DNA from: Candidatus Peribacteria bacterium
GTDB lineage: Bacteria > Patescibacteriota > Gracilibacteria > Peribacterales > Peribacteraceae
Assembly (NCBI GenBank): GCA_943354555.1
Contig: CALRCM010000001.1
Coordinates: 7,453-71,452, forward strand
Direction of reading: 5' to 3'
DNA length: 64,000 nucleotides
Part shown: piece after piece, positions 6,776 through 31,627 of the stretch
How positions within the stretch are numbered: position 1 is the stretch's first letter
Layout: each line of letters opens with the position of its first letter
Program-made: the position numbers and the translations under genes
The notes under the pieces: model-generated
What the model was told of the DNA's origin: nothing
The model's database searches: none
What the model saw: only the letters and a program-made list of their open reading frames with translations

Positions 6776-8593
6776 ATGGCACCGAAGGAGCAGCCTATTA
6801 TCCGGCAGGTATTCGAACTCTTGCGACGGATCGGCATTCCGCCGTCCTATCTGGCTTTCCCTGTATGTCTTTCGCTGTGTACAGCGGTAGCCGAGGGTGC
6901 GAGCATGAGTCTGCTCATTCCTCTGCTGAACGGATTTCTGCAGAGAAACTTTGCATTTGCAAAAGAAGTGCCAGTACTTGGTTCCATCATTGAAAAGTTG
7001 CCACCGGAGGTACTCGCCAACGATCGCATGCTGTTTGCGGTGATCCTTGGCGGGTTTATCACGCTTTTTCTCACCAAGAATGTTCTGCGCTACAGCACTG
7101 TTCTCAGCATTGCGTACTTTTCCGAGCGCGCGCTACACCATCTCCGCAAGGCGCTGTTTACCCGTTACCTAAGCTTCGGGAAACTCTTCTTCGACCGCAC
7201 AAATGTAGGACACCACAGCACGTTGCTTCTGGAATTCGCCCATCTCGCGCTGCGTCCTGTACAAACGATCGATAAATACATGAACTCCATGTTCTCGCTT
7301 GCGGCGTATTTTATCGTGATGATCTCCATTTCCTGGAGACTGACTCTCGTCGCCTTGCCACTCTTTGTCGTGCTGCACTTCACAGTCAGAACCATGATCG
7401 TTTCCATTAAAAAACTTTCCTATGGCATTGCCGAAAGGGGCAGCGCGCTCGGTAAGAAGTCCGTGGAGATTCTTTCCACTATTCCTCTCGTAAAATCCTC
7501 ACGGATGGAACGAGAGGAGCAGGATAACTACACGGCGATCAGCAACGGCAAATCCCGCATGGATTTCCGTGCCCGTGCGCTGCAGGAGATGATTCTGCCT
7601 TTACAGGAGATCATCACCATCACCGCTGTTGCCATCATCTTTTTCGGAGCGCTCTACCTCTTCGGCAGGGACCGCGTGGCGTCGAGCTCTGCGATCATGG
7701 TGTATTTCTATATCGTCATGAATGCTTCCAGTAAGTTTGGTACTCTCTCGGGATTCCGCGGGACACTGGCTGCTGCTACGGGCCCACTCAGTGAAGTCCG
7801 CCGTATCTTTACGGAAGAAGGGAAGTTCTTCGTGCGCGGGGGATCGAAGCACTTTGCGGGGATCGGCAGCGAGATTGCCTGCAAGGATCTCTCATTCTCC
7901 TACGACGATGACCGCACAGTTCTCCAGAACGTTTCCTTCATTCTGGCAAAGGGCGCGATGACGGCTATTGTCGGGCCAACGGGGGCCGGCAAAAGCACGC
8001 TCATCAATCTTTTCATGCGCTACTACGACTGTGCGCCAAAGTCGATTTTCGTTGATGGAACGGATATCCGTGAATTCACACTGGAGTCGTATCTGGAACA
8101 TGTTGCTCTGGTTAGTCAGGAGACTCTTCTATTGCACGACAGTCTCCGCAGTAACATCCTCTACGGAATCAGAAGGGAAGTTGCTGATGCGGAACTCCAG
8201 CGCGTGCTGGAGCAGGCGCGTCTGACGGAATTCGTCGGCAAGCTTACACAGGGCGTCGACACACTCATTGGCGACCGTGGTGTTCGCCTCAGCGGGGGGG
8301 AGAAGCAACGTGTGTCCATTGCCAGAGCCCTTCTCAAGGGTGCCGATATCCTTATTCTCGACGAAGCGACAAGCTCTCTCGACTCGGAAACAGAGAAGCT
8401 TATTCAGGAAGCTATCGATGAGGCCGTGCAGGGGCGTACATCCATTGTCATCGCTCATCGCCTGAGCACTATCCGTAATGCGGATAAGATCGTCGTCGTG
8501 GAAGATGGTTCCATTGCCGAAGAAGGCGATCTGGAGACGCTGCTGCAGAACAAAGGAGCATTCTTCAGGTTGTGGGAGCAGCAGAAGTTTTGA
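6776..8593 (+). CDS. ABC transporter, fused permease/ATPase (MsbA/PglK-like exporter)
   Basis: Six-TM N-terminal half; Walker A GPTGAGKST, signature LSGGEKQRVSIARAL, Walker B ILILDEATSSLD. Start set at ATG 6776 (MAPKEQPIIRQ); the track ORF starts at 6542 and overlaps the divergent gene. Confidence 0.85.
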   Translation: MAPKEQPIIRQVFELLRRIGIPPSYLAFPVCLSLCTAVAEGASMSLLIPLLNGFLQRNFAFAKEVPVLGSIIEKLPPEVLANDRMLFAVILGGFITLFLTKNVLRYSTVLSIAYFSERALHHLRKALFTRYLSFGKLFFDRTNVGHHSTLLLEFAHLALRPVQTIDKYMNSMFSLAAYFIVMISISWRLTLVALPLFVVLHFTVRTMIVSIKKLSYGIAERGSALGKKSVEILSTIPLVKSSRMEREEQDNYTAISNGKSRMDFRARALQEMILPLQEIITITAVAIIFFGALYLFGRDRVASSSAIMVYFYIVMNASSKFGTLSGFRGTLAAATGPLSEVRRIFTEEGKFFVRGGSKHFAGIGSEIACKDLSFSYDDDRTVLQNVSFILAKGAMTAIVGPTGAGKSTLINLFMRYYDCAPKSIFVDGTDIREFTLESYLEHVALVSQETLLLHDSLRSNILYGIRREVADAELQRVLEQARLTEFVGKLTQGVDTLIGDRGVRLSGGEKQRVSIARALLKGADILILDEATSSLDSETEKLIQEAIDEAVQGRTSIVIAHRLSTIRNADKIVVVEDGSIAEEGDLETLLQNKGAFFRLWEQQKF

Positions 8594-8607
8594 TGTGCAT
8601 AGCGTGT

Positions 8608-8702
8608 CGTGCTTCGATACGCGCCGCCGTGTCATGGTGAGTAGTCCTGAGCATAGCGAAGGACGTATCGAACCAGACATGCGGCGCTACTCAGCATGAC
8701 AC
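8608..8702. repeat. Family-1 palindromic intergenic element, copy A
   Basis: Arms GTGTCATGGTGAGTAG (8629-8644) and CTACTCAGCATGACAC (8687-8702) with core CCTGAGCATAGCGAAGGAC. By eye its reverse complement is about 80-85% identical to 16873-16970. Confidence 0.85.
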
Positions 8703-8710
8703 ATTGTTTT

Positions 8711-9541
8711 TTACTTCATGTCAGGCTTGTACCCCACCAGAAAGTGCGCGTGTGCCATGAGTGAATTGGTTTTATACGGGTAATGCATAAAGAGCTTTCG
8801 TAGGGCAAGAATTCCTCTCCGGATAGCGACAATTCTGCGGTCAGTAGAACGACGGATAGGCACATAAATAGGGAACGGGCAGACGTGTGTTACCGCGACA
8901 TTCGTAAAGCCGACATTCTTCGCAAACACCGCATACTCCTGTGCAGAATAGGTATTACGATAGTAGTCTTTGAAGATTTTTCCTTTATACAAACCAAAGC
9001 ATTTCTTGAACATGCGCATAACGAAGTTTAAGTGCTGTACAGAAAATTTCTTCGGAATATTGAGTGAGATCATCACGCCGCCTGGGTGGAGTATTTTCAG
9101 TTGTTCGGCAAAAAGCTCTTCGACATTATCCAGATGCTCGGCGAGCCCTATGGATACTGTAGCGTCGTAGGTTCCTTCCGGGATCCCTGTCTTGAGCGCG
9201 TCACCGACAAGAAAATTGGCATCAAGATTACGGGATCCAAATGCCTCGCGCGCGATACCAATGGCGTTCTCTTCGTTATCCATCAGGGTTACGTCCAACC
9301 CCATGTATGTCTTGCAGTAGAGTCCGATGGTGCCGCGGCCGCAGCCAAGCTCGATTACTTTTTGTGCGCTGATCTTTTGCAGATGTTCCTGAATGAAGAG
9401 AAAGTAGTTATACAAACTCAACTGACGCTGCGTACACGGAACAGTACCTTTCTCAACGTAAATCGACTTCTCTTCAAGATTGCTCTCCACACCACCTTTT
9501 TGGATTGCCGCCCATTTTCCATGGAATGCTTCCTGACTCAT
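8711..9541 (-). CDS. Class I SAM-dependent methyltransferase
   Basis: Motif I VIELGCGRGTIGLY, then VSIGLAEHLDN...LHPGGVMIS. Confidence 0.8.
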   Translation of the reverse strand: MSQEAFHGKWAAIQKGGVESNLEEKSIYVEKGTVPCTQRQLSLYNYFLFIQEHLQKISAQKVIELGCGRGTIGLYCKTYMGLDVTLMDNEENAIGIAREAFGSRNLDANFLVGDALKTGIPEGTYDATVSIGLAEHLDNVEELFAEQLKILHPGGVMISLNIPKKFSVQHLNFVMRMFKKCFGLYKGKIFKDYYRNTYSAQEYAVFAKNVGFTNVAVTHVCPFPIYVPIRRSTDRRIVAIRRGILALRKLFMHYPYKTNSLMAHAHFLVGYKPDMK

Positions 9542-10506
9542 GATGCTTTTGTAGTGGTCTTTATCGTAGAGCGCAACTTCTTGGCGATGAAGATATCTGT
9601 TTTCGTGCGTGCTTCATGCGTCCTTCCGCCGATGTGCGGGGTCAAAAGAACGTTCTTATGCTTTTTGCTGTGCATAACAAGCGGATCACCGGAACAATCC
9701 TGATCAAACCTCGTTTCGCCCGTAAGGACATCTGCTGCGTACCCTGCGATGCGCTTCTTTTTCAGTGCAAACAGCAGTGCCTGTTCGTCCACAATCTTTC
9801 CACGTGCTGTATTGATGAGCATTGCCGTCGGCTTCATGTGCTGGAATTCCTTTTCCCCAATCATTCCTTCCGTTTCCGGAGTGAGATGAACATGTAGGGA
9901 AACGACATCGCTTGTTTTGAGAAGTGTATTCAGTGATACCTGCGTGCAGACGGATGCGGGAATTTTCTGCAGATCATAGCCGATGATTTTCATGCCGAAT
10001 GCCCTTCCGTATCCTGCGATTATCCGTCCGAGTCTGCCTACGCCGATTATTCCTAGAGTTTTGCCTTTCAGTTCCATTCCGGCGAACGGTTTCCCATTCC
10101 ATTGCCCCTGCGATACAGCTTCTGCCGCTGGAGCGGTATGACGTACCAGCGCGAGAAGAAGACCCCATGCATGCTCTGCGGTTGATGGGATATCTTCAAG
10201 AAGATCTTTTGCATCTTTAAGACTGAGCACGGTGATGCCTTGTTGTTTTGTGGCCTTTAGATCGATGTGGTCTGTTCCAGTCGTTGCGGTTGCAATGAAG
10301 CGCAGATTGGATGCGTGCTTCAGGACATTTGCATCAAATTGCAGGCCGAGCTGCGTGACGACTGCATGGTATACACCAATATTTTTTATCAGCTGTGCCT
10401 GAGTAGGCGTTGCGTAGTCAACAGTTCCGATGGATTCGAGGATCTTTTTTGCCTCAGGAGTGAATTCTTTGCCGATGGTGCAGAGGATACGATGGGGCAT
10501 GAGCAT
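9538..10506 (-). CDS. D-isomer-specific 2-hydroxyacid dehydrogenase family (phosphoglycerate dehydrogenase-like)
   Basis: NAD fold GKTLGIIGVGRLGRIIAGYGRAFGMKIIGYD; C-terminal HIGGRT motif; 4-bp overlap with the downstream MTase gene. Confidence 0.8.
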   Translation of the reverse strand: MLMPHRILCTIGKEFTPEAKKILESIGTVDYATPTQAQLIKNIGVYHAVVTQLGLQFDANVLKHASNLRFIATATTGTDHIDLKATKQQGITVLSLKDAKDLLEDIPSTAEHAWGLLLALVRHTAPAAEAVSQGQWNGKPFAGMELKGKTLGIIGVGRLGRIIAGYGRAFGMKIIGYDLQKIPASVCTQVSLNTLLKTSDVVSLHVHLTPETEGMIGEKEFQHMKPTAMLINTARGKIVDEQALLFALKKKRIAGYAADVLTGETRFDQDCSGDPLVMHSKKHKNVLLTPHIGGRTHEARTKTDIFIAKKLRSTIKTTTKAS

Positions 10507-11214
10507 TTATTTGGATAATTTCTTCATCCAGAATTCCGCAAGTTCCAGATCCACTGGTTCGTTGATATCAATGCTTCGTTCGTGAGGCATAACGTATGCC
10601 AGGGATTTTTTGCCAAACTGATCGTCATTGAGGATCAACTCCGTGCGCGTGAGATAGACAGCGCAGTTACGTTTGTAGGCCTTCTTGCCCTTATGGCGTG
10701 GGTCGGATTGCCCTTGTTCTTCTTGTAACAGTGGTTTGATTTCACCATCCTCAATCGTTTTAATTTTCTGGGGGGCAAAATCTGGAAGCTCTACCATGCT
10801 AAACACAGAATCAGCATCGGATTCGGCGGCGATATGTATACAGGCATCGATATCTTCACCGGTGCGTAGCGGTGACGTCGGCTGCAGCATCATTACATAG
10901 TCGAATGTTTGCTTCTCCTGCTCTTCTATCCAGCGGATCGCATGCGTAAGCACATCGAGCGCGAGTGCAGAGTCTGTTGAGAGATCTTTCGGGCGGAGAA
11001 AGGGAACTTCGGCTCCAGCTTTTTTTGCGATGGCTGCGATTTCGTAACTGTCGGTGGAAACAATACAGCGCGTGAGGAGCTTGGAATTTTTCGCTGCATC
11101 AATCGTGTAGGCGATCAGGGGTTCTCCGTGCAAAGGCGCAATATTCTTGTTAGGGATTCCCTTGCTCCCGCCACGTGCGGTGATAATGCCGAGGACAGTC
11201 GGTGTAGACGTCAT
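10507..11214 (-). CDS. Acylneuraminate cytidylyltransferase family (CMP-ulosonic acid synthetase, NeuA/PseF-like)
   Basis: LGIITARGGSKGIPNKNIAPLHGEPLIAYTIDAA matches the CTP_transf_3 N-terminal signature. Confidence 0.8.
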   Translation of the reverse strand: MTSTPTVLGIITARGGSKGIPNKNIAPLHGEPLIAYTIDAAKNSKLLTRCIVSTDSYEIAAIAKKAGAEVPFLRPKDLSTDSALALDVLTHAIRWIEEQEKQTFDYVMMLQPTSPLRTGEDIDACIHIAAESDADSVFSMVELPDFAPQKIKTIEDGEIKPLLQEEQGQSDPRHKGKKAYKRNCAVYLTRTELILNDDQFGKKSLAYVMPHERSIDINEPVDLELAEFWMKKLSK

Positions 11215-11217
11215 GTG

Positions 11218-12186
11218 TTATAGAGTAATCGTTTCATCCCAGTTATATATCCAATTTCCGTCGATCTTGCTCCCAAATCTTCCCCTGTAGTAATCGCGGT
11301 TCAGCAGTTCTGTATGTGTTAAATCCCGCGTTTCAGTGCCAAGGATCATCTCCCAGTCGGGGATTTCCTGTTGTGCGATTTTCAGCTGGTCCTTTTGCGG
11401 CAGCGCACTGAATTCACGCAGCTCTTTCAGGTGTTTCGGTGTGATCGACACAGGTCCATCCTTTGTTTTATCGCTTTCAAGGATGGTGAAGTGCCTTTCG
11501 ATGACATCCGCCCCAAGGGCGATTGCCGCCTTTGTTGCTCTGATGCCGTCTCTGGCGACGAGCGTGTGATCAGACCACCCAATGGAATCGGTGAATTGCC
11601 TCAACCACTGCATTCGCCGCAGATTGCACATCTCCAGAGTATTTGGATAGCTTGTGACACAATGGAAGAAGGTAAATTCCTTGTTTTTCTCCTTTAGTAG
11701 TTTTGCCGTTTTTTTAATCTCCTCGTCAAATGTTGCCCCCGTCGAGATATAGAGGTGATCGAAGCTTGCGGCTAGCTCACTGACCATTGGGTAGCTCGCG
11801 CAGTCATAGCTTGCGATCTTCACGATGCGCTCAGGCCAGGGGAGTGAAGTGGTGAATGGTATGCGGTTGCGGCTGAAGACCGTTGTCATCGGCAGAATAC
11901 GGTATTTCTTGCATTCTTCTATGAAAAACCGGTGATCATCTTCTGTGAGATCCAACTTTTTCAATCGTTCGTATTCCGTTTCATAGGGGCGCTTGATGGC
12001 AAGAACTGTCCCATCGGTAGCAGCTTTTCCCTCGTCGAATTCTGGTCGGCGTGTGAGGTCTTCGGAAAAGATCATTTGAGATTTGACGATATCCGCGCCG
12101 TTTTCCGCTGCCGCCGAGATCATCTCTGAAAGAAGCGTTCGGTCGCCGCAGTGGTTTTGGCAGAGTTCGACGATTAATTGGGTCAT
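11218..12186 (-). CDS. NeuB-family PEP-condensing ulosonic-acid synthase homolog, apparently without a canonical C-terminal SAF domain
   Basis: IVELCQNHCGD (compare IAEIGxNHNGD), KIASYD, WSDHT, ERHFT motifs of NeuB. The C-terminal ~60 aa do not look like the SAF/AFP-like domain present in the PseI of this window. Confidence 0.7.
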   Translation of the reverse strand: MTQLIVELCQNHCGDRTLLSEMISAAAENGADIVKSQMIFSEDLTRRPEFDEGKAATDGTVLAIKRPYETEYERLKKLDLTEDDHRFFIEECKKYRILPMTTVFSRNRIPFTTSLPWPERIVKIASYDCASYPMVSELAASFDHLYISTGATFDEEIKKTAKLLKEKNKEFTFFHCVTSYPNTLEMCNLRRMQWLRQFTDSIGWSDHTLVARDGIRATKAAIALGADVIERHFTILESDKTKDGPVSITPKHLKELREFSALPQKDQLKIAQQEIPDWEMILGTETRDLTHTELLNRDYYRGRFGSKIDGNWIYNWDETITL

Positions 12187-12454
12187 GTAGCTTGGGTGGA
12201 TATCGACAGTATCTACTTTCTTTTGTCAGCCAGACAAAAGAAAGTAGCCCTTCGACAGGCTCAGGGCAGGCGCCGAAAAGCTCTCCGCGCGCCAACGCCC
12301 CTCCACACGGCCCTGTGTCTCATTGGAAACGCCTACAAGGATTCGGCGTTTCCAACTCGACTTGCTGAGGCAAAAGCAGGGCCTTCCCCTTCACCCCCTC
12401 CTTCGTCAGGCTCAGGACAAGCTGTGGCGCGCGGGGCCCCTCCGGAGCTTTTGT
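12187..12454. repeat. Composite hairpin-rich spacer with degenerate family-1 cores
   Basis: Perfect 15-bp hairpin at 12213-12227/12233-12247 (loop AGCCA). Perfect 11-bp hairpin at 12323-12333/12345-12355. Cores CCCTTCGACAGGCTCAGGG (12248-) and TCCTTCGTCAGGCTCAGGAC (12393-). Long-range complementarity AAAAGCTC..CGCGCGCC between about 12262-12285 and about 12428-12455. Confidence 0.8.
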
Positions 12455-13567
12455 TTACAACTTGGAAATACATTCCACTACCTCTTTTGAAGCAAGTGTT
12501 GTTCCATCAAGTGTTTTGTATTTCTTCGTTAATGCAGACCGAAGTTTTTGCATTTCAACTTTCTGCTTTTCTCCTTCTGTCAGTAATTCTTTCAGGCTTT
12601 GACCTCGGTACACCGTTCCTATACCAAGAGATTCAATGCATTGGTTGTTGAAATAGATCTCCGGATCATCCTTCGGGTCCCAAGGAGCCGCGACGAACGG
12701 TGTATCGGTGAGAAGCGAGAGCCAAACCGAGCTCCAGCCGCTTCTTGCGAAGTGCAGTTTGATTGCCGGATTCCCGATAACATCGGGTAACGCTTTCATG
12801 GCTTCTGTTAGGGCTCCCGGATCATTGGAGTATATCGTCATTCCAAGGCCTTTAGCTTCAGTAAAGAGACGTTCAAGTCCGGGAATACCGGTAACGGTTA
12901 CGTAAATGCCCGAAGAGAGTGCGTCGGCGTTGGGTGAGGGCTGTGAAATGGTAGGAGGAACAAATTGAGAATCGAAAATTGAAGATTGAAAATTGAGTAG
13001 ATGAGAAAAAGTACCTGGGTCGGTTAGAAAATTTTTCTGGAAAGATTGTTCGATGGATTGAAACTTGGAGATTGCATGGTCGAGAACTTGCTCAGGTATT
13101 TCAACCTCCGGTTTCCCTTTTGCCTGCGACAGAATGTCTGTTTGCCAGCCGAACGTGAGTGCGTAGGCAGGAGCGAGGCCGATCGTAAGACGCGGGGAAC
13201 GATGCAGTTCCAGTGCGATGGCATTGCCGTAGGTCTTTTGCAGGTAATCACGAATCAGTGCCGATTGTGCATCTACATGATCTATCCATCGTTGTAGATA
13301 GGTGGCATATGATTCTTTACCGTAGAAGAGCGGCGAGAGGAGCTTGCCGTATGTCTCATCGAGAATGATGTCACTCATGCGAGCACCCAAAACTTCTTTC
13401 ATAATGGATTGCTGCTTTTTTCCGTAGACAAGAGGGACGATGATCCGGTGTTTCGCTTTGCCCTGTTTTTCCAGAAGATCTGCGACAGAAAGCGCCCATT
13501 CCGTTGCACGAAGATACGGACCGGTGCCATACGCGAAGCTTGTAAGAATGAAAGGTACTTCGTTCAT
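12455..13567 (-). CDS. Hypothetical protein, GT-B (GT1/GT28-like) glycosyltransferase C-terminal signature
   Basis: 370 aa. HFARSGWSSVWLSLLTDTPFVAAPWDPKDDPEIYFNNQCIESLGIG resembles the nucleotide-sugar-binding motif of GT1/MurG-type enzymes. No other motif recognised. Confidence 0.45.
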   Translation of the reverse strand: MNEVPFILTSFAYGTGPYLRATEWALSVADLLEKQGKAKHRIIVPLVYGKKQQSIMKEVLGARMSDIILDETYGKLLSPLFYGKESYATYLQRWIDHVDAQSALIRDYLQKTYGNAIALELHRSPRLTIGLAPAYALTFGWQTDILSQAKGKPEVEIPEQVLDHAISKFQSIEQSFQKNFLTDPGTFSHLLNFQSSIFDSQFVPPTISQPSPNADALSSGIYVTVTGIPGLERLFTEAKGLGMTIYSNDPGALTEAMKALPDVIGNPAIKLHFARSGWSSVWLSLLTDTPFVAAPWDPKDDPEIYFNNQCIESLGIGTVYRGQSLKELLTEGEKQKVEMQKLRSALTKKYKTLDGTTLASKEVVECISKL

Positions 13568-13603
13568 CTATGCAGAATTGGTAATAGGGGACCCACCCAC
13601 CTA

Positions 13604-15307
13604 TTAGAGGGTTGAATATTGGATCTGTTTGAGTTGGAGCAATTCTTCCTTTGAATACAATCCCCAAGGATCGAAGAGGAATCCCGGTTGTCGCATGGAG
13701 GAAGCGAGGGAATGAATATCCAGTTCAGAGAAGCTCGGGTGATTGGTGAGGACGAGCACGCAGTCCGCATTCTGGAATCCTTCTTTAGGGGAAGGAACAA
13801 CTTTCGCCTTGAGCGCCTTCAATTCCTTGGCGTCTGCGAGTGGATCAGCAATGGTGATCGACGGGTATTTCTTCTGCAGCTTCCTGAGAATATCCACCGA
13901 TGTGGAAAAGCGAATATCGGATGTTTCCGGTTTTCCTTTAAAAGCCATGCCCAAAAGAAAAATGCGTGTACGTTTTCCTGTGCCTGACTTGCGTGCATGG
14001 CGATCGACGAGACTACAGACGAAATCGATCATATTTTCGTTAATTTCGCGGGAGAGCCTGGGGAGCCGCGGCGTTACGGATCGTTTTCCTGATGCAACCA
14101 GCAGCCACGGATCTTTTACAAGGCACATGCCCCCTACACCGGGGCTGGGGAGAGGAATGGGGTTACGCGGATATCCTTCGTTTGCCGCACGAATGACCTT
14201 GCGTGCGGAGATAGTGTGCTCGCTCGCCAATTGTGCAAATTCATTGGCGAAGGCAAAGGAAAGATCGCGGAAGGCGTTATTCAGAAGTTTTACCGATTCA
14301 GCTTCTTCAAGTGTATCCACAGCGACGATCGTTGGTGCGAAGACGCGGAAGAACTGCGCGGTTGCCTCGAAGCTCTCGCGGTTGAGTCCGCCAATGACTT
14401 GTGGGAGTGACCGCAATTCTTCGAGTGCTTTTCCCTCCACAGTGCGCTCCGGTGCGAAGGCGATAAGGAAATCCTCACCTGCCTTGAGCCCTGATGTTTT
14501 CTCCAGCATAGGAATCACGATGGATCTGGTAATGCCGATGGGAACGGTGGAGCGCAGGATGATGAGATCGTGGTGCTTGAGGACACGGCCGATCTCGTGT
14601 GCGGCATCTGCAATGTACGTCGTCACGGCTTTGCCGTCGGGTCCTACTGGAGTGCCTACACAGAGGACATAGATATCACTTTCATTGGCCTTGAAGCGTT
14701 CCCGTACGAGAAGGTTCTTTCCTATGTGCTTCTTTAAGAGCGCACTGAGTCCTTTTTCGAAGAAGTGCGGGATGCCTTTCTTCAGCGATCCAAGAATTTT
14801 GCGATTCACATCGACGCCGATGACTTGAATGCCGAATTCGGCGAGAGTGAGAGCAAGGGTAAGACCGACGTATCCGAGACCTACGACTGCTGCAGTTCGC
14901 ACTTGCACGTCACTGTGCTTCCAGAGCTCCAGTGGCGTGACGATATCTACGAGGTTCCCTTTGCTATCCACCGTGATCACATGATGGAATTTACTTTCCG
15001 CAACATTGCGTTCTTTGATTTTTTTATGAAGCTCGCGGAGCATTGTCCCTGCGGAGGGGTTCCACTGAATCGTCATCGGGTTACGCGTCATGATGTCTCC
15101 GATAGGGGTGGTCAGAGGTTTGCCTGCAAGAATGGCACGACGAATATCACCGTCTGTAGCAATACCCAGAAGACGGTCTCCCTTCGTGACCAGTGCTATT
15201 CCCCAAGGTGCCGGAGGCTTCTGATGAGGCCCTTCGCTGATAACACGCATAGCTTGCCTGATACTTGTTTTGGGCGAGATGCAGATCGGCTTCAGTCTCT
15301 TGTGCAT
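13604..15307 (-). CDS. CBS-pair domain fused to a UDP-glucose/GDP-mannose dehydrogenase-family nucleotide-sugar dehydrogenase
   Basis: N-terminal ~135 aa resemble a CBS pair (ISPKTSIRQAMRVISEG...GIATDGDIRRAI...VITVDSKGNLVDIVTPLEL). Then AVVGLGYVGLTLALTLAEFGIQVIGVD Rossmann fold and the catalytic region GVGGMCLVKD. Confidence 0.75.
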   Translation of the reverse strand: MHKRLKPICISPKTSIRQAMRVISEGPHQKPPAPWGIALVTKGDRLLGIATDGDIRRAILAGKPLTTPIGDIMTRNPMTIQWNPSAGTMLRELHKKIKERNVAESKFHHVITVDSKGNLVDIVTPLELWKHSDVQVRTAAVVGLGYVGLTLALTLAEFGIQVIGVDVNRKILGSLKKGIPHFFEKGLSALLKKHIGKNLLVRERFKANESDIYVLCVGTPVGPDGKAVTTYIADAAHEIGRVLKHHDLIILRSTVPIGITRSIVIPMLEKTSGLKAGEDFLIAFAPERTVEGKALEELRSLPQVIGGLNRESFEATAQFFRVFAPTIVAVDTLEEAESVKLLNNAFRDLSFAFANEFAQLASEHTISARKVIRAANEGYPRNPIPLPSPGVGGMCLVKDPWLLVASGKRSVTPRLPRLSREINENMIDFVCSLVDRHARKSGTGKRTRIFLLGMAFKGKPETSDIRFSTSVDILRKLQKKYPSITIADPLADAKELKALKAKVVPSPKEGFQNADCVLVLTNHPSFSELDIHSLASSMRQPGFLFDPWGLYSKEELLQLKQIQYSTL

Positions 15308-15398
15308 AGCTACAGTGTACGTCCGGGAAACACGACCCCGCCATATTCATTACTGCTTTTCTTGTCACTCCTCGTCCGAGAGTCGATACTCCTCCGGC

Positions 15399-16865
15399 AT
15401 GCTCGCTTCACCATATCGCGCCGTCATTCTCCGGTTCTCCAACGATGCCGCACATGCGGCCATCGAACGCGTGATGGAGAAGGTTCCATTTTCCTATGCA
15501 GCAAGTATCGGCGCTGTTCCAAGAACGTACGCGAATCTCAGTGCCGATGCGCAGCGGTGGTTTTCCTCTAGCGACGTGCGCGGAGGACTGTATCCCGATG
15601 TGGATCCTGCATCACTCCTCCCTTTGGACGAAGCTCTTTTAGAGCGTATGCGGGAATGCGAAGCAATCTTCATGCATATGATGTCACGTCTCGAGCAGAC
15701 GCAGTTCATTCCCTACGATGAACGCAAGCGTGCATACATGTGGTATCTACGGTACTGGAATGATTTTCTGGAGCGACACCGGATCAACCTGCTCCTTGCA
15801 GGAATTCTGCCCCATGAAATTCCCGATTACATCATTTATGCTCTTTGCAAAGCCAAGGGCATTGCGGTGTGGGTTTTTCATGCAACGACCGTACGCGACA
15901 CTGCAACCCTTTTCACGGATATCGAAGATCAGGCACCGGAGGTCGGGGAAAGATATACACAGCTGCTTGCAGAAAATATATCGGGCAAAATTTCCCTTTC
16001 CCCGTTGTTCGAAGAATATTTCCAGAAGCAAATACAGCCGACCGGCAAGGTGGCAATCGCATTCCGGCGCCCAACTGCTTTCGATCGTCTACTGATCCGT
16101 GCACGTGCTTACGGCATTACATCCATAATTGCCTTCCTGCGATGGCTGCCTCTTCTCTTTTCCGTTGCGGCGTGGAAAGGCCGTATGCGGAAGGTGCTTG
16201 CATGGTGGAAAGTTCGTGATCTTCGGCGATTTTACGATGCTCATGCAGTCCTGCCCGATTACTTAGAGTCCTACATCTACGTGCCACTGCATTTCCAGCC
16301 GGAATGCTCCACGTGCCCCATGGCCGGTGCATTCGTCGATCAGCTGATGACACTTCAGGTGCTTTCCAAAGAAGCGCCTGCAGGCGTGTTGCTCTATGTC
16401 AAAGAGCATCCTGTGCAGCGGAAAAAGGGATTTGCCTGCCGCAGTATCGATTTTTACCGGCAGCTCCTTGCGATGTCCAATGTTCGTCTTATCGAGCACG
16501 CTGCGGATACATTTATACTCCGGGAGCATTGCCAAGCGGTTGCGACGGCAACCGGCACCGCCGGATTTGAAGCGATTTTCCGGGGCAAGCCTGTTTTGAT
16601 GTTCGGGCATAGGTTCTATCAGTATGCGCCTGGCGTATTTTCCATCCGTACTATCGAAGATTGCCGCGAAGCGATGCAGGCGATATTTACGGACGGAAAA
16701 ATCCCCGAGCAGCATTATGTGCGACTGTTTCTAAAATCTATGGAAGAAAAATGCATTCATGCTTCAGTGACGGATTGGCACCAGTTGCAAGCGTCCAATC
16801 TTTCCTTTGAGCAGCATGTTGGGGCGATTTCGGGAGCGTTATTGCAAAAAATAGCCCCTTACTAA
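15399..16865 (+). CDS. Capsule polysaccharide biosynthesis (Capsule_synth, KpsS/KpsC-like) family protein
   Basis: YVPLHFQPECSTCPMAGAFVDQL...LYVKEHP...ATATGTAGFEAIFRGKPVLMFG pattern. Paralog of 33320-34753. Start set at ATG 15399 because the track start (15270) overlaps the divergent gene. Confidence 0.6.
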   Translation: MLASPYRAVILRFSNDAAHAAIERVMEKVPFSYAASIGAVPRTYANLSADAQRWFSSSDVRGGLYPDVDPASLLPLDEALLERMRECEAIFMHMMSRLEQTQFIPYDERKRAYMWYLRYWNDFLERHRINLLLAGILPHEIPDYIIYALCKAKGIAVWVFHATTVRDTATLFTDIEDQAPEVGERYTQLLAENISGKISLSPLFEEYFQKQIQPTGKVAIAFRRPTAFDRLLIRARAYGITSIIAFLRWLPLLFSVAAWKGRMRKVLAWWKVRDLRRFYDAHAVLPDYLESYIYVPLHFQPECSTCPMAGAFVDQLMTLQVLSKEAPAGVLLYVKEHPVQRKKGFACRSIDFYRQLLAMSNVRLIEHAADTFILREHCQAVATATGTAGFEAIFRGKPVLMFGHRFYQYAPGVFSIRTIEDCREAMQAIFTDGKIPEQHYVRLFLKSMEEKCIHASVTDWHQLQASNLSFEQHVGAISGALLQKIAPY

Positions 16866-16984: not shown

Positions 16985-18028
16985 CTAGGGTCGATACATC
17001 GTCGCAATTGCATCCATATTTTCCCGCAGCCATCCATGGAGTGATGCCAGTCCTTCCTTTAGCTGCATCTTCGGTTCCCACCCCAATTCCTTTTTTGCCT
17101 TGGAATTGTCACTGACGAAAATAGGCTGATCACCGGGACGGACATCCGCGCGCGTCCATATCGGTTTCAATCCCAATGCTTTTTCCATATGTTCCATAAA
17201 TTCGATCAGCGAGAGCGTGTTACCTGATCCTCCGCCGATGTTATAAATCCGGCCATTGCATGTATCGATTTTTTCAATAGCGTTTTCATACAAACGTACA
17301 AGATCATCCACATACAGCAGGTCTCGCACTTGTTTGCCGTTTCCATAAATAGAGAGGGGACGACCAAGCATGCTCGCGATCAAAAACCATGCCACCCAGC
17401 CCTGATCCTCCACGCCAAGCTGATGCGGTCCGTAGATGCATGATTGCCGGAATACTACTGTCGGGATGCCGTACATGCGTGCGTAGTCACGGACGTACTG
17501 ATCCGCGGCGCCCTTGCTGCAGCCGTATGGGGAATGGAAATCGAGTGGCTCTTCTTCTGTCGCCCCCTTTCTGCCGTCGGCAAACACGTATCGATTTTCC
17601 TCCTCGCGCACGGGAATACTTTCGAGTCCGCCGTACACTTTGTTGGTGGAAGCGAAGAGTACGATGGGGGGATTCTTTACAGATCGTGCCGCCTCAAGAA
17701 CATGGAGCGTACCGAGGAGGTTCTGCTCGCAGTCCATCATCGGTTCTTTGACGGATGTTGTGACGGCGACCTGACCTGCAAGATGCAGGATGGCATCATG
17801 TGTTTCGGCCCCCTGTTCCAATGCTTTCTGATCCTTACAGACGTCGCCGCGGATGATCGTAACGGCATCAGGCCATTTCTCTTTTAAGAATGCAGCGTTG
17901 ATATCCACCCCTCTCCTTGAGAAATTATCGAACACGGTCACCTCCCAGCCACGGCTGGCAAAATGGTTAGCAGCGTTCACCCCAATGAATCCTACCCCCC
18001 CTGTAATGAAGATGCGTTTAGCGGGCAT
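16985..18028 (-). CDS. NAD-dependent epimerase/dehydratase (CDP-paratose 2-epimerase-like SDR)
   Basis: MPAKRIFITGGVGFIGVNAANHF...; catalytic YGCSKGAADQY. Start set at ATG 18028; the track ORF runs to 18172. Confidence 0.75.
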   Translation of the reverse strand: MPAKRIFITGGVGFIGVNAANHFASRGWEVTVFDNFSRRGVDINAAFLKEKWPDAVTIIRGDVCKDQKALEQGAETHDAILHLAGQVAVTTSVKEPMMDCEQNLLGTLHVLEAARSVKNPPIVLFASTNKVYGGLESIPVREEENRYVFADGRKGATEEEPLDFHSPYGCSKGAADQYVRDYARMYGIPTVVFRQSCIYGPHQLGVEDQGWVAWFLIASMLGRPLSIYGNGKQVRDLLYVDDLVRLYENAIEKIDTCNGRIYNIGGGSGNTLSLIEFMEHMEKALGLKPIWTRADVRPGDQPIFVSDNSKAKKELGWEPKMQLKEGLASLHGWLRENMDAIATMYRP

Positions 18029-19145
18029 GAAGGATACGATCGTAAAGAGAAATGTATTGTTTGGCAATGTTGCGCCAATCATGCAATGCGGCGTAGCTCT
18101 TTCCGCTTCGGCCCATGGCAACGGCCTGCTCCGGATGATCGAGCAAGCGGATGACTGCATCGGCAACGGCATCTATGTCTCCATCCGGTACCACGAAGCC
18201 GGTTTCTCCATCTTTTACGGCATCGCGTATGCCTCCGGCGTCCGTTGCCACGATCGGCTTTCCGCAGGCACTCGCCTCAAGATAGACGATGCCGAAACCT
18301 TCGAATTTCAGTCCGACAACTTTCGGCGTATGCACATAGATATCAGCGGATTGAAAGTATGCAACAAGTTCATCGCCACTTTTGCGGCCGACAAAATCCA
18401 CCGAGTCTCCGATTCCCAGTTCCTTTGTTAGCGTCTCCAGATCAGGACGCCCGTTGCCGTCACCGACAATGACATACATCGCATTGGGATGATTCTTGAG
18501 TATTTGCGGCATGGCTTTGAGGACAAGATCATGGCCTTTTCTGCCCCACAAACCTCCAACAGTCAGGAGAATTTTTTTCCCGTGATAGCGGTTCCGGATG
18601 GATGCCGTGTCCACGCTTTTTTGGAACCGATCGAAGTGGACGCCATTATGGATGATATCGATCGGGTAAGAACACTTTGCGAGCTCCAGAATTTTTTCTT
18701 TGGTATACACGCTTGGTACAGCGATCGCCTCTGCTTTCTTGTAACAATGTTTCAGCAACCAGCGCTCGGGGAAATACGTCAGTGGCCGGACGCCATGTGT
18801 TCCCTGTGCGCCTGTCATGAAGGGCTTGTCATATTGCCTCGCGGAAAGCAGAGCGGGTACGCAGTAGGGAAAGGCAAACAGGTCATGTACAAGATCACAA
18901 TCTGAAACATCTACAGTGCGGAAGTATTTCAAGCCTTCCGGCTGATATATACGGAAAACATATTCTGGCAGTACGCATCGTGTTTCACAGGGCAGGGAAG
19001 ATTGCGCAATGAATGTTTTCTGGGAACGCGGCAGAAAGAGCGTGCAGTCCACTGAGCATTGCTTTAGTGCATGCACCAGCTCCCAAGTGATATTGCCGTA
19101 GCCATCTTTTGGTTCGGCCGTAGAGGAGAAGAGTGCGATGCGCAT
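18018..19145 (-). CDS. Family 4 (GT-B, group 1) glycosyltransferase
   Basis: MRIALFSS...; LLTVGGLWGRKGHD...EGFGIVYLEASACGKPIVATDAGGIRDAV. The track start 19172 is a TTG; ATG at 19145. Confidence 0.8.
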   Translation of the reverse strand: MRIALFSSTAEPKDGYGNITWELVHALKQCSVDCTLFLPRSQKTFIAQSSLPCETRCVLPEYVFRIYQPEGLKYFRTVDVSDCDLVHDLFAFPYCVPALLSARQYDKPFMTGAQGTHGVRPLTYFPERWLLKHCYKKAEAIAVPSVYTKEKILELAKCSYPIDIIHNGVHFDRFQKSVDTASIRNRYHGKKILLTVGGLWGRKGHDLVLKAMPQILKNHPNAMYVIVGDGNGRPDLETLTKELGIGDSVDFVGRKSGDELVAYFQSADIYVHTPKVVGLKFEGFGIVYLEASACGKPIVATDAGGIRDAVKDGETGFVVPDGDIDAVADAVIRLLDHPEQAVAMGRSGKSYAALHDWRNIAKQYISLYDRILHAR

Positions 19146-19156
19146 ATCGATTTTCA

Positions 19157-20221
19157 TTATGATGCAATGCAATCTTCCCGTAGTGGCGTACCTCTTTCAA
19201 TCCGTTTTGCCGCTTTCTTGCCGATGATGTGATCGTATTCCTTCGGCGGAAGTCCGTTGGCTGGGCGGATGGAACGAATATTCTTGGTAGAGAATGTCTC
19301 GCCTTCTGCGATATCTTCCACAACGAAGAGAGAGCGGCGGAACTGCATACTCTTTTTCTCTTCCGGAGACGGGCCATAGTGTGCGGAGCCCAGGATCACG
19401 GGATCTAGTGACGCTGTTTCTATGTCTTTCTCTGCAGCGCGGATGGCATCAACCATTGAGCGAAATGCCTGAGGATCCAACGAGAAGGCGCTGTCCGGTC
19501 CACATTCATGCTGATCGAGCTTGAAGTGCTTTTCGATGATGCATGCACCGAGGCGGACTGCTGTGACCGCTGCCGCATTGTCCAGTGTGTGATCCGAAAG
19601 ACCGACGGGCACATGAAAATCTTTCATCATTGCGGGGATCGTATTCAGATTCATGGATTCTGGCTGCGCGGGATATGCACTCGTACACTTGAGTAAAGCC
19701 ACTTCACAGCCCTTCGCCGCTTCCAACGCATCCATAATCTCTTCGCGACTTGCCATGCCCGTAGAGATGATAATAGGCTTTCCAGTCGCAGCGACTTTGC
19801 GGATCAGCGACGTATCGACGATCTCAAACGAAGCGATTTTGTATGCGGGGACATCCATAGTTTCCAAAAAATCCACCGCTGTCGGATCAAACGGTGAGGA
19901 AAAGAGATCCATGCCAAGGTCATTGGCGATTTTCTTCAGTTTCGGCTGCCACTTCCATGGAGTGAAGGCCTCGCCGTACAGTGTATAAAGTGTTTTTCCT
20001 TCCCATAATGTTCCTTTCCCAACACGGAACTCTTCACGATCACAATCAATGGTGATGGTGTCGGGCGTGTAGGTCTGGAGTTTCACCGCATCGGCTCCGG
20101 CATTTTTCATGGCACGGATGATCTCCACGGCTTTTTCAAAACTCTGACCGTGGTTCGCCGACATCTCCGCGATGATGTAGACGGGATTGCCGGATCCGAT
20201 GGTGTGTCTGCCGATCTTCAC
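19157..20221 (-). CDS. pseI: Pseudaminic acid synthase
   Basis: Collinear with C. jejuni PseI as I recall it: IIAEMSANHGQSFEKAVEIIRAMKNAGADAVKLQTYTPDTITID, KIASFE, GLSDHT, IIEKHF, plus C-terminal SAF domain (RRSLFVVEDIAEGETFSTKNIRSIRP). GTG start overlaps the upstream stop (GTGA). Confidence 0.85.
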   Translation of the reverse strand: MKIGRHTIGSGNPVYIIAEMSANHGQSFEKAVEIIRAMKNAGADAVKLQTYTPDTITIDCDREEFRVGKGTLWEGKTLYTLYGEAFTPWKWQPKLKKIANDLGMDLFSSPFDPTAVDFLETMDVPAYKIASFEIVDTSLIRKVAATGKPIIISTGMASREEIMDALEAAKGCEVALLKCTSAYPAQPESMNLNTIPAMMKDFHVPVGLSDHTLDNAAAVTAVRLGACIIEKHFKLDQHECGPDSAFSLDPQAFRSMVDAIRAAEKDIETASLDPVILGSAHYGPSPEEKKSMQFRRSLFVVEDIAEGETFSTKNIRSIRPANGLPPKEYDHIIGKKAAKRIERGTPLREDCIAS

Positions 20222-27446: not shown

Positions 27447-27495
27447 TGATTGGCATCCTAACACAGTTCCCATGGTCTTTGGCTATCGTTCAGCC

Positions 27496-28572: not shown

Positions 28573-28590
28573 GAGATGGAAAGGGGAAAA

Positions 28591-31567: not shown

Positions 31568-31627
31568 GTGGCTATAGTGGAACCGTGGCGTTCTCCGCGC
31601 AATACACGCCACACATGTATTTTGCTT

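Follow-up and report, generated by a model that had tools for sequence, protein, structure and literature searches.

In all three known nonulosonic acid routes, a GT-B-fold NDP-sugar hydrolase (NeuC, LegG, or PseG) stands before the NeuB-type step. The Kdn pathway of Bacteroides thetaiotaomicron, which makes a deaminated nonulosonic acid, needs neither an NDP-sugar dehydrogenase nor a GT-B protein. A minority of NeuB sequences, from environmental organisms, lack the SAF domain and cluster together (Microb Genom 2021, PMC8208679), and no function for SAF-less NeuB proteins was reported in the literature found. The window analyzed here, a stretch of 64,000 nt from Candidatus Peribacteria bacterium (GCA_943354555.1, contig CALRCM010000001.1, positions 7,453-71,452 of the forward strand), contained a short SAF-less synthase and one SAF-bearing PseI, which were the only two NeuB paralogues in the genome. 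The source organism is a lake bacterium with a tiny genome (1.16 Mb). The short synthase and the three genes that follow it are the last four of the six genes of a minus-strand module (8711-15307), which on balance probably provides a sialic-acid-like sugar in CMP-activated form, distinct from Neu, Leg, Pse, and Kdo.

Read along the minus strand, the module encoded a fusion of a CBS pair with an NDP-sugar 6-dehydrogenase (13604-15307, 567 aa), a GT-B protein without a family that is a putative NDP-sugar hydrolase (12455-13567, 370 aa), the SAF-less NeuB-family PEP-condensing synthase (11218-12186, 322 aa), a CMP-ulosonate synthetase-like cytidylyltransferase (10507-11214, 235 aa), a D-isomer-specific 2-hydroxyacid dehydrogenase (9538-10506, 322 aa), and a class I SAM methyltransferase (8711-9541, 276 aa). 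Re-measurement from the ORF coordinates bore out the claim of the sequence-only reading that the last four genes abut one another, with gaps of -4, 0, and 3 nt, although that reading omitted the two genes most tightly linked to the synthase, those for the GT-B protein and the CBS-dehydrogenase. The sole long gap within the six-gene run was a structured spacer of 268 nt between the GT-B and synthase genes (12187-12454), which contained a perfect 15-bp hairpin immediately before the synthase start, as well as repeated occurrences of the motif CCTGAGCCTG(A/T)CGAAGG. A simple consensus scan of its coding strand detected one weak terminator-like hairpin with a 5-pair stem (12261-12246). Divergent from the operon was a gene for a KpsS/KpsC-like Capsule_synth protein (15270-16865, plus strand; PF05159, E 7.6e-13), the start of which was ambiguous (TTG 15270, ATG 15399, or ATG 15474). 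In L003, L007, and L008, all relatives from the Peribacteria, it occupied the same position, and it is a candidate transferase for the CMP-sugar; a second Capsule_synth copy (33149-34753) flanked the Pse operon of the window. An MsbA/PglK/HepA-like ABC exporter (6785-8593, plus strand; ABC_membrane and ABC_tran, HepA_fam_ABC 414 bits) was convergent with the methyltransferase gene, as it was with the module in L003, L007, and L009, and probably exports the glycan or a lipid-linked precursor. Its ORF opens at GTG 6542, and the start at 6785 was our choice.

The short synthase matched Pfam NeuB (PF03102, E 1.5e-49) over residues 22-257 only and retained the condensing-enzyme motifs previously described for it, namely QNHCGD (10-15), KIASYD (123-128), WSDHT (204-208), and ERHFT (230-234). 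It had no SAF match, in agreement with the earlier claim, whereas the PseI of the window did, and in a profile-profile comparison the alignment to SAF-bearing paralogues stopped where their SAF domain starts. The AF2 model (pLDDT 94.2) presented a tail of four helices and a beta-hairpin, in which R297, Y300, R301, G302, R303, F304, N315, and W316 were invariant in 37 sequences; about 80 positions of the protein were invariant and the active site was intact. In the PDB, N. meningitidis NeuB (NmNeuB), C. jejuni PseI, and SpsE matched best, both in sequence and in fold. In the alignment, NmNeuB residues E25, K53, Q55, T110, K129, S132, S154, Y186, S213, H215, E234, H236, and D247 were retained in the synthase, while E134 was replaced by Asp. 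The SAF domain of NmNeuB supplies R314 and F288; the short synthase instead has a tail with three invariant arginines. Scores against the NeuB and PseI equivalogs were far below the cut-offs (151 bits vs. 399.65, and 126 bits vs. 340.25, respectively), and the SAF-less proteins formed a clade separate from the SAF-bearing paralogues (SH support 0.999, stem of 1.26 substitutions per site). Elsewhere in the window, the Pse operon was complete, with PseB, PseC, a PseG/H fusion, PseI (19157-20221; SAF present, 463 bits, above the PseI cut-off), and its own cytidylyltransferase (30815-31612). Cytidylyltransferases of this Pse-side type (f47) were located within or next to Pse-type operons in L023, L035, and L071, and between PseC and PseI in L023. 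The low equivalog scores, the clade of its own, and the separate complete Pse operon uphold the proposal that this is a second ulosonic-acid module that does not correspond to the Neu, Leg, Pse, or Kdo gene set.

Relatives of the short synthase were collected from 80 species-level loci, which spanned CPR phyla, four archaeal lineages, and at least 12 further bacterial phyla, at identities of 47-84%. Linkage was counted in the 51 loci with at least 4 kb on both flanks, with some counts based on 48 loci. The four genes that had been presented as a set did not behave as a unit: they occurred all together in only 6 of the 51 loci, in varying orders, and the nearest relative (L007, 84% identity) lacked the methyltransferase. 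The synthase, cytidylyltransferase, and CBS-dehydrogenase, on the other hand, occurred together in 38 of the 51 loci, and together with the GT-B protein in 22. The core comprised the CBS-dehydrogenase, the family-less GT-B protein, the SAF-less synthase, and the NeuA/PseF-like cytidylyltransferase, with the 2-hydroxyacid dehydrogenase as a frequent partner of the cytidylyltransferase and the methyltransferase as a variable decoration. This core very likely defines a separate conserved module. In other lineages, the slot before the synthase was filled by another GT-B protein (f32; NGLGHxRR motif, weak Glyco_tran_28_C match in 4/5 members) or by a Nudix-like protein (f19) with a GX5E...REUXEE box, for which Pfam NUDIX was matched in 3/8 members (best E 0.0033, under the Pfam gathering score) and which was accompanied by a HAD-family protein in 7/8 loci. 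The presence of either a GT-B protein or a Nudix-like protein plus HAD in this slot points to the release of the sugar from its nucleotide after oxidation. Type B cassettes consisted of the dehydrogenase, a ManC-like nucleotidyltransferase, a HAD protein, and the synthase, with no obvious hydrolase. In the archaeal type, the slot contained a TIM barrel resembling xylose isomerase, a feature that the pathway proposed below leaves unexplained. A cassette for a CMP-activated sialic-acid-like sugar recurs in ultra-small bacteria, in many other phyla, and in archaea.

The CBS-dehydrogenase (Pfam CBS and UDPG_MGDP_dh_N/central/C; TIGR03026, 345.5 bits vs. a cut-off of 189.8) retained the catalytic Cys (GGMCLVKD, 392-399), and its nearest solved structures were the P. 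horikoshii UDP-ManNAc dehydrogenase (4r16), CalS8, and Cap5O. It lay near the short NeuB in 38/51 loci, usually one gene away, and accompanied it in no fewer than five cassette architectures and also in archaea; its length of almost always about 570 aa indicates that the CBS fusion is kept. The two other NDP-sugar dehydrogenases of the genome are encoded by ORFs of 422 and 436 aa, which are too short for a CBS extension. The GT-B protein, encoded immediately before the short NeuB in 28 loci, had no Pfam or NCBIfam matches, and its AF2 model (pLDDT 94.5) most resembled GT1-type GT-B enzymes (UGTs, CalG3) in Foldseek (E about 1e-10, TM 0.55-0.64). It contained a C-terminal motif of the nucleotide-sugar type (ARSGWSS 274-280, DDPEIYFNN 300-308) but, unlike GT1 enzymes and PseG, had no N-terminal His (AYGTGPY 12-18), so that a hydrolase activity may be proposed by analogy only. 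The cytidylyltransferase (PF02348, E 2.4e-25) lay at most 8 kb from the short NeuB in 43/48 loci and directly downstream in 29. Its best NCBIfam match was PseF (TIGR03584, 160 bits, under the cut-off of 205.7), KdsB models gave 52 bits or less, and the nearest structures were CMP-Neu5Ac synthetases (6ifd, 143 bits; 1eyr, 111 bits). The 2-hydroxyacid dehydrogenase (PF02826, E 8.7e-55, and PF00389; GVGRLG 155-160, R235, E264, H291) was below every NCBIfam equivalog cut-off. It was present in 20/51 loci, and 22 of its 25 occurrences were beside the cytidylyltransferase; 17 of the 20 loci also contained the CBS-dehydrogenase, a weak enrichment relative to 38/51 overall. The methyltransferase (Methyltransf_25/11/12/23/31; ELGCGRG 64-70) was of a type found in 6/51 loci, and any of four methyltransferase families occurred in 24/48.

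Our tentative and unproven best guess for the product is a nine-carbon dicarboxylate, a non-2-ulosaric acid. As the putative first step, the CBS-dehydrogenase would oxidize C6 of an NDP-hexose or NDP-HexNAc to a uronic acid, from which the GT-B protein would hydrolyze the nucleotide as PseG, NeuC, and LegG do in known routes. The short synthase would then join the free uronic acid and PEP into a 3-deoxy-non-2-ulosaric acid with its second carboxylate at C9, and the 2-hydroxyacid dehydrogenase may oxidize or epimerize the new alpha-hydroxy-acid end (C8-C9). The cytidylyltransferase would form the CMP-sugar, which the methyltransferase may O-methylate or esterify; the KpsS/KpsC-like protein would transfer the sugar to a glycan, and the adjacent ABC transporter would export that glycan. 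Alternatively, the action of the dehydrogenase could be the final step and take place at C9 of the CMP-sugar, which would lead to the same product. A dicarboxylate is supported by the retention of the catalytic Cys that the dehydrogenase needs for full oxidation to the acid, by the requirement of the 2-hydroxyacid dehydrogenase for an alpha-hydroxy acid, a group absent from ordinary CMP-ulosonates, and by the replacement of SAF (R314 and F288 in NmNeuB) by the tail with its invariant arginines. On the other hand, the dehydrogenase might just provide a uronic acid for a different residue in this glycan, and to our knowledge no NeuB-family enzyme accepts a uronic acid as substrate. The reduced keto acid offered by the sequence-only reading is unlikely because reduction at C2 would remove the anomeric center that CMP activation requires, judging from the chemistry of CMP-ulosonate synthetases.

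The alternative that survives best, although unlikely, is an ordinary mono-carboxylate nonulosonic acid, with the GT-B protein freeing ManNAc, mannose, or a similar sugar for conversion into CMP-Neu5Ac, CMP-Kdn, or an isomer, the CBS-dehydrogenase feeding an NDP-uronic acid to a different glycan residue, and the 2-hydroxyacid dehydrogenase and methyltransferase tailoring something else. A GT-B protein, a NeuB-type synthase, and a NeuA-type transferase mirror the three-gene logic of NeuC/NeuB/NeuA, the cytidylyltransferase is closest to CMP-Neu5Ac synthetases, and the NmNeuB barrel residues are all retained; furthermore, surface glycans often contain uronic acids, and two more NDP-sugar dehydrogenases are encoded in the window. 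However, the CBS-dehydrogenase tracks the short synthase across loci, architectures, and domains, usually with a nucleotide-releasing enzyme in between, and neither the association between the 2-hydroxyacid dehydrogenase and the cytidylyltransferase nor the loss of SAF with its arginine-rich substitute is explained. Improbable is a phosphate-dependent route of the Kdn or animal type, in which the synthase would join PEP and a hexose-6-phosphate, the tail would bind the phosphate, and a HAD phosphatase would act before CMP activation. Kdn-9-P and Neu5Ac-9-P synthases (B. thetaiotaomicron and animal NANS) are NeuB homologues, the three tail arginines would fit a phosphate as well as a carboxylate, and cassettes of types B and C include a HAD-family gene (9/48 loci). 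In these types, however, the HAD accompanies a sugar-1-P nucleotidyltransferase and thus may serve NDP-sugar supply or 1-phosphate removal; the window module and most type A cassettes contain no HAD gene, and the route has no role for the near-universal NDP-sugar dehydrogenase, the GT-B protein, or the Nudix-like protein.

Still more doubtful is a non-phosphorylated, eight-carbon Kdo-like acid, for which an NDP-hexose would be oxidized to the uronate and a UXS-like SDR would decarboxylate this to an NDP-pentose, followed by hydrolysis, PEP condensation, CMP activation, and KpsS/KpsC-like transfer. An extended SDR that resembles dTDP-glucose dehydratase and UXS-type enzymes lies nearby (16985-18172), members of its family occur near the cassette in 17/51 loci, and the neighboring transferase belongs to Capsule_synth, the characterized members of which are Kdo transferases. 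This SDR, however, is outside the conserved core and in the window belongs to the side of the Pse operon, such SDRs are common to any glycan locus, the cytidylyltransferase is far nearer to NeuA/PseF than to KdsB, and the 2-hydroxyacid dehydrogenase is left without a role. Least probable of all is that the four genes are accessories of the Pse pathway, with the module cytidylyltransferase as the real PseF, a redundant or decaying short NeuB, and an O-methyl-glyceroyl or similar acyl decoration made by the 2-hydroxyacid dehydrogenase and methyltransferase: of the two cytidylyltransferases in the window, this one matches PseF better (the other has no match), and N-glyceroyl and O-methyl-glyceroyl Pse derivatives occur in Tannerella and Campylobacter, but the 47-85% identity of the synthase across phyla, its invariant positions, and its intact active site indicate that it is not decaying, many cassette loci lack Pse genes, Pse operons elsewhere (L023, L035) contain the other cytidylyltransferase type, and the cassette has no conserved acyl-activating or acyl-transfer gene.

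The cassette shares the logic of NeuC/NeuB/NeuA (SiaA/SiaC/SiaB of N. meningitidis; 1XUU, 2WQP), that is, a GT-B protein, a PEP-condensing TIM barrel, and a CTP_transf_3 enzyme. The short synthase is matched best, in fold as in sequence, by NmNeuB, the barrel catalytic and metal residues of which it retains, although the two are about 26% identical and the short synthase lacks the SAF/antifreeze-like domain. The cassette GT-B protein has a family-less GT1-like fold rather than being an Epimerase_2 member as in the NeuC route, and the cassette adds an obligatory CBS NDP-sugar 6-dehydrogenase partner and often a 2-hydroxyacid dehydrogenase. In the Pse route (PseB/C/H/G/I/F of C. jejuni and H. 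pylori; 8H2C), PseG is likewise a GT-B NDP-sugar hydrolase just before a NeuB-family synthase, and PseF is the top NCBIfam match of the cassette cytidylyltransferase; in contrast, the cassette contains no dehydratase, aminotransferase, or acetyltransferase. The Kdn route of B. thetaiotaomicron (Kdn-9-P synthase, Kdn-9-P phosphatase, and CMP-Kdn synthetase), set beside the cassette by its description, shares a NeuB homologue and a cytidylyltransferase, and some cassette versions also have HAD-family and ManC-like genes, whereas the window module has no HAD phosphatase. A solved short NeuB, the 290-aa "sialic acid synthetase" of Leptospira borgpetersenii (6NCS), is only about 26% identical to the short synthase, and neither this source nor that on the SAF-less NeuB proteins (PMC8208679), the KEGG sequences of which share with the short synthase the lack of SAF, gives a substrate or gene context. 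The literature search found no natural nine-carbon ulosaric acid, and the uses of the term, as far as listed, refer to the seven-carbon Dha (3-deoxy-D-lyxo-hept-2-ulosaric acid) from the walls of plants and algae, the sole 3-deoxy-2-ulosaric acid that this search yielded. Dha is eukaryotic and would be an analogue in chemistry rather than in genes, but its presence in rhamnogalacturonan II and in the scales of green algae demonstrates that glycans can include a dicarboxylate keto-deoxy sugar.

The four minus-strand open reading frames that the sequence-only reading had grouped together lie exactly at the positions it gave, with junctions of -4, 0, and 3 nt: a methyltransferase (8711-9541), a D-2-hydroxyacid dehydrogenase (9538-10506), a cytidylyltransferase (10507-11214), and a NeuB-like synthase of 322 amino acids (11218-12186), each with a family match in Pfam and NCBIfam. 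The motifs quoted for the synthase were recovered at residues 10-15, 123-128, 204-208, and 230-234. Pfam detected the TIM-barrel NeuB domain (PF03102, E 1.5e-49) at residues 22-257, and the best fold matches in Foldseek were 1xuu, 2wqp, 8h2c, and 1vli, the first two being N. meningitidis NeuB (NmNeuB). Pairwise HMMER alignment with 2wqp placed E25, K53, Q55, T110, K129, S132, and E134 of NmNeuB on E7, K35, Q37, T102, K123, S126, and D128 of the synthase, and S154, Y186, S213, H215, E234, H236, and D247 on S148, Y180, S205, H207, E230, H232, and D243. The metal-binding histidine pair and the PEP- and sugar-binding residues are thus retained, with E134 replaced by Asp, and most of these equivalents are invariant across 37 homologues. 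NmNeuB N184 corresponds to an invariant Thr178.

The C-terminus of the synthase, which had been described as a tail unlike a SAF domain, was compared by profile and by structure, and both comparisons bear the description out. No SAF domain (PF08666) was matched by Pfam in the synthase, whereas the PseI of the window matched at 4.9e-11. Profile-profile alignment (hhalign) of the 37 homologues with 11 SAF-bearing paralogues spans the inter-domain linker and ends where SAF starts, and the AlphaFold2 model (pLDDT 94.2) folds the last 70 residues into four helices and a short hairpin. By eye, the tail ILGTETRDLTHTELLNRDYYRGRFG lines up with the N-terminal half of the SAF domain of NmNeuB, as if it were a half-SAF remnant, but this was rejected, as hhalign puts the tail on the linker and the model is helical. 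The tail is an inter-domain linker followed by a new element, and its invariant residues R297, Y300, R301, G302, R303, F304, N315, and W316 argue that it is not junk. In NmNeuB, according to Gunawan et al. as cited in PMC8208679, R314 and F288 of the SAF domain shut the sugar pocket of the partner subunit at its distal end.

The synthase also stands apart from the characterized synthases. It scored 151.4 bits against the N-acetylneuraminate synthase equivalog TIGR03569 (cut-off 399.65) and 125.8 bits against the pseudaminic acid synthase equivalog TIGR03586 (cut-off 340.25). In a tree of 94 sequences, 78 SAF-less proteins were split from 16 SAF-bearing paralogues of the same loci by a branch of 1.26 substitutions per site (SH support 0.999), read as an unrooted bipartition. 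Because it lacks SAF, falls below the NeuB and PseI cut-offs, and belongs to its own clade, the short synthase represents a distinct family, and the proposal that it is not a normal NeuB, LegI, or KdsA withstood the search for a SAF domain with clear orthology. In a large published phylogeny, SAF-less NeuB sequences were noted to cluster together and to derive from environmental organisms, with function assigned to none (PMC8208679). Our keyword search of the literature for NeuB without a SAF domain gave no match. Searches for NeuB in Patescibacteria returned nothing relevant, and those for nonulosonic acids in the candidate phyla radiation returned no report. A structure has been deposited for a 290-aa Leptospira homologue (6NCS). 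Public annotation names members of the family "N,N'-diacetyllegionaminate synthase" or "SpsE"; the gene context lends these names no support.

A total of 80 species-level loci were fetched, the synthases of which are related to the short synthase at 47-84% identity. The cassette is highly conserved, with synthases that are 47-85% identical across a range running from Peribacteria to Asgard archaea and ammonia-oxidising archaea, and it is commonest in CPR bacteria. Besides many CPR lineages, the loci come from Bdellovibrionota, Elusimicrobia, Acidobacteriota, Omnitrophota, Chloroflexi, Bacteroidota/Rhodothermales, Rickettsiales, Nitrospina, Nitrospirae, Myxococcales, Campylobacterales, and one cyanobacterium, and, among archaea, from Asgard, Thaumarchaeota, Thermoproteota, and Methanomicrobiales. 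The sequence of the window locus itself was present in DNA runs only, from lake-water and groundwater metagenomes. Linkage was counted in those 51 loci that had 4 kb or more of flanking sequence on each side. The synthase, the cytidylyltransferase, and a CBS-fused dehydrogenase occurred together in 38 of these, and the same three with a GT-B protein in 22; the 2-hydroxyacid dehydrogenase was present in 20 and the window-type methyltransferase in six. A separate count over 48 loci gave 43 with the cytidylyltransferase, 39 with the dehydrogenase, 29 with the GT-B protein, and 24 with any of four methyltransferase families. All four genes of the original set were found together, in differing order, in six loci (L003, L018, L027, L035, L043, and the Asgard locus L055), and the closest relative (L007) lacked the methyltransferase. 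The suggested four-gene linkage therefore holds in part: the synthase-cytidylyltransferase pair is very stable and the 2-hydroxyacid dehydrogenase frequent, adjoining the cytidylyltransferase in 22 of its 25 occurrences, while the methyltransferase is interchangeable. Dependence of the 2-hydroxyacid dehydrogenase on the CBS-fused dehydrogenase was considered and set aside, their co-occurrence (17/20) being too weak to count against a base rate of 38/51. The real unit is larger than four genes, with the GT-B protein (12455-13567) and the CBS-fused dehydrogenase (13604-15307) directly upstream on the same strand, and it is very probable that this core forms a separate, conserved CMP-ulosonate module.

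The 567-aa protein encoded at 13604-15307 carries a CBS pair fused to a full NDP-sugar 6-dehydrogenase (N-terminal, central, and C-terminal domains), with the catalytic Cys395 within GGMCLVKD. It scored 345.5 bits against TIGR03026 (cut-off 189.8) and stayed under the cut-offs of all three of the UDP-ManNAc, UDP-Glc, and UDP-GlcNAc equivalogs; its closest proteins were UDP-ManNAc dehydrogenases and CalS8. The cytidylyltransferase, assigned by its sequence to the CTP_transf_3 family (PF02348, 90 bits), scored 160 bits against the PseF model TIGR03584 (cut-off 205.7), and its best PDB matches were CMP-Neu5Ac synthetases. The 2-hydroxyacid dehydrogenase (PF02826, 185 bits; PF00389, 64 bits) has the GxGxxG motif, read from the sequence as GVGRLG at residues 155-160, and the Arg/Glu/His triad R235, E264, and H291, and it fell below every substrate-specific equivalog cut-off (PGDH 224 vs. 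454, glyoxylate reductase 207 vs. 455). The GT-B protein (370 aa) had no family match in Pfam or NCBIfam, the PseG model and Epimerase_2 included. Family and sequence-to-structure searches yielded sub-threshold GT28 and UGT matches only, and the fold search alone was informative: the predicted structure (pLDDT 94.5) is a GT-B fold nearest to GT1 enzymes. The N-terminal motif is AYGTGPY, and the catalytic His of GT1 enzymes and PseG is absent.

The GT-B gene is separated from the synthase gene by a 268-nt spacer (12187-12454), the sole long gap in the six-gene run. A perfect 15-bp hairpin (tactttcttttgtc...gacaaaagaaagta) within the spacer ends approximately 20 nt ahead of the start of the synthase, and CCTGAGCCTG(A/T)CGAAGG occurs there twice. 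The spacer may act as an attenuator or as a processing site, or it may be a repeat element. A low-complexity ORF of 157 aa (12178-12651, plus strand) crosses this structured spacer, and another of 183 aa (8129-8680, minus strand), antisense to an ABC transporter gene, is also of low complexity and had no family match on scanning. Both are probably not genes.

The most telling result was that the gene between the dehydrogenase and the synthase differs among cassette types. In CPR-type cassettes, this slot is filled by the family-less GT-B, which lies directly upstream of the synthase in 28 loci. In the Omnitrophota, Balneolaceae, and gammaproteobacterial type, the slot holds another GT-B with an NGLGHxRR motif and weak GT28 matches, which resembles the family-less protein in the C-terminal nucleotide-binding motif only. 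The Rickettsiales, Campylobacterales, and proteobacterial type has a Nudix-like protein with the box GX5E...REUXEE in non-canonical spacing; Pfam NUDIX matched three of eight members, under the gathering score (best E 0.0033). A xylose-isomerase-like barrel occupies the slot in the archaeal type. GT-B and Nudix-like proteins are kinds of enzymes that can detach a sugar from its nucleotide, and each of the three textbook routes to nonulosonic acids places a GT-B-fold hydrolase (NeuC, LegG, or PseG) immediately ahead of the NeuB-type step. By analogy, we argue that the GT-B and Nudix-like slot proteins may be non-orthologous replacements for the nucleotide-release step.

From the observed family assignments, intact active sites, and gene linkage, we infer an order of steps and a product. 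Since an NDP-sugar dehydrogenase requires the nucleotide handle, the simplest order would be oxidation, release, condensation with PEP, and activation with CTP. The dehydrogenase would oxidise an NDP-hexose to the uronate, and the slot enzyme, as a predicted hydrolase, would strip the nucleotide and free the uronic acid. The SAF-less NeuB would then condense the free uronic acid with PEP to a nine-carbon 3-deoxy-non-2-ulosaric acid, its arginine-rich tail binding the extra carboxylate. The 2-hydroxyacid dehydrogenase would remodel the new alpha-hydroxy-acid end, and the cytidylyltransferase would activate the acid with CTP. Two observations fit a second carboxylate. A 2-hydroxyacid dehydrogenase must have an alpha-hydroxy acid to act on, and an ordinary ulosonate lacks one when its C2 is tied up as a ketoside; the position of this enzyme beside the cytidylyltransferase fits a product in which the C8-C9 uronate end supplies one. 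Furthermore, a tail carrying three invariant arginines stands in place of the SAF domain with R314 and F288. That the product is this dicarboxylate is nevertheless a tentative and somewhat doubtful assignment. The precursor NDP-sugar was sought in the whole genome, which contained three NTP_transferases and a single Epimerase_2; judging by PseB and Gmd in the window, UDP-GlcNAc and GDP-mannose are both available, and genome content was therefore discarded as a pointer.

The best-surviving alternative is an ordinary Neu- or Kdn-type product, in which case the dehydrogenase may be there for a different residue of the same glycan. We know of no NeuB enzyme that accepts a uronic acid, and no natural nonulosaric acid was found in the literature; among the papers listed, "ulosaric" refers to plant and algal material (pectin/RG-II, green algae), and the sugar, where visible, is the seven-carbon acid Dha of pectin and algal scales. 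An ordinary product would leave the recurrent 2-hydroxyacid dehydrogenase without its alpha-hydroxy acid. A phosphate-dependent route comes next: a HAD-family enzyme is also present in seven of the eight Nudix-like loci and in a cassette type composed of dehydrogenase, ManC-like nucleotidyltransferase, HAD, and synthase. That the latter type has no evident hydrolase, that the archaeal slot holds a xylose-isomerase-like barrel, and that the GT-B is missing the catalytic His are weak points of the dicarboxylate route. A Kdo-like C8 acid, reached through decarboxylation, would share the uronate origin. KDO8P and DAHP synthases were only remote fold matches of the synthase (E 1e-8 to 1e-10, 12-16% identity), behind all NeuB-family structures; the KdsA and DAHP synthase families gave no match to it in Pfam or NCBIfam, and KdsB models reached at most 52 bits against the cytidylyltransferase. 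That the module genes are Pse accessories is the weakest alternative, as the pseudaminic acid set of the window is complete and has a cytidylyltransferase of its own.

The window is a single long surface-glycan island in a genome of 1.16 Mb (estimated 93% complete) that is most closely related to MAGs of Candidatus Peribacteria and Peregrinibacteria. Its pseudaminic acid set, all on the minus strand, comprises PseB (26481-27473), PseC (25277-26470), a PseG/PseH fusion (20218-21708), PseI with NeuB and SAF domains (19157-20221; 463 bits, above the cut-off), and, in the same gene run, a second cytidylyltransferase (30815-31612). The type of the latter occurs inside Pse operons of other genomes, in L023 between PseC and PseI, and hence the cytidylyltransferase of the module is not a stray PseF. 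The short synthase and PseI are the only NeuB paralogues in the genome, and the two cytidylyltransferases each belong to their own module, forming two separate synthase-cytidylyltransferase pairs. The fusion joins PseG (UDP-sugar hydrolase) and a PseH-like GNAT acetyltransferase in one 496-aa protein, also found in a Peribacteria relative (L003/L075). Within the Pse operon, a 608-aa ORF (21708-23534) between a FabG-like gene and PseG/H had no Pfam or NCBIfam match. Upstream of PseB in the same run (27496-33525, minus strand) are an unannotated 358-aa ORF, a DegT-type aminotransferase (28591-29880), a Gfo/Idh/MocA oxidoreductase, the second cytidylyltransferase, a small methyltransferase, and a FemAB/GNAT-like protein (32266-33525). 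This set may constitute a third sugar branch, or it may tailor Pse, e.g., with an aminoacyl or acyl group. A single 2694-aa ORF occupies 43359-51443 on the minus strand.

A KpsS/KpsC-like (Capsule_synth) gene flanks each module on the opposite strand (15270-16865 and 33149-34753). In 17 of 48 loci, the short-NeuB cassette was accompanied by a TagF/Glyphos_transf-like GT-B family (f4), frequently as two copies (including L005, L010, L016, L017, L020, L022, L027, and L028; PF04464 is precomputed in L005). TagF-like and KpsS/KpsC-like proteins use cytidine-nucleotide donors, and both may be transferases for the CMP-sugar of the module.

Cells are capped at their surface by sialic-acid-like sugars, which control how hosts, phages, and partner cells recognise them. 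To our knowledge, only a handful of biosynthetic routes are established (Neu, Kdn, Leg, Pse, and a few epimers), and the surface chemistry of the host-attached CPR bacteria is almost unexplored. The wider proposal is that one route, through the steps outlined here, is common to ultra-small CPR bacteria, many other phyla of bacteria, and several lineages of archaea, and that it leads to an undescribed sugar class, in effect a CMP-activated sialic acid bearing a further carboxylate at C9; this is possible, though less likely than not. A new product would mean an additional sugar class, a new type of substrate for NeuB enzymes, and a specific surface marker for uncultured carriers; if the product is ordinary Kdn or Neu5Ac, the cassette would still be an unrecognised, non-orthologous route mislabelled as legionaminate synthase/SpsE. 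Untargeted mass spectrometry has detected CMP-linked keto acids in bacteria that fit no known structure, none of them tied to this cassette (SugarBase preprint), and a gene set seeking a product is thus timely. In its working logic, the module is like NeuC/NeuB/NeuA and PseG/PseI/PseF. It differs from these systems in that its enzymes score below the NeuB, PseI, and PseF equivalog cut-offs and in that its synthase has no SAF domain.
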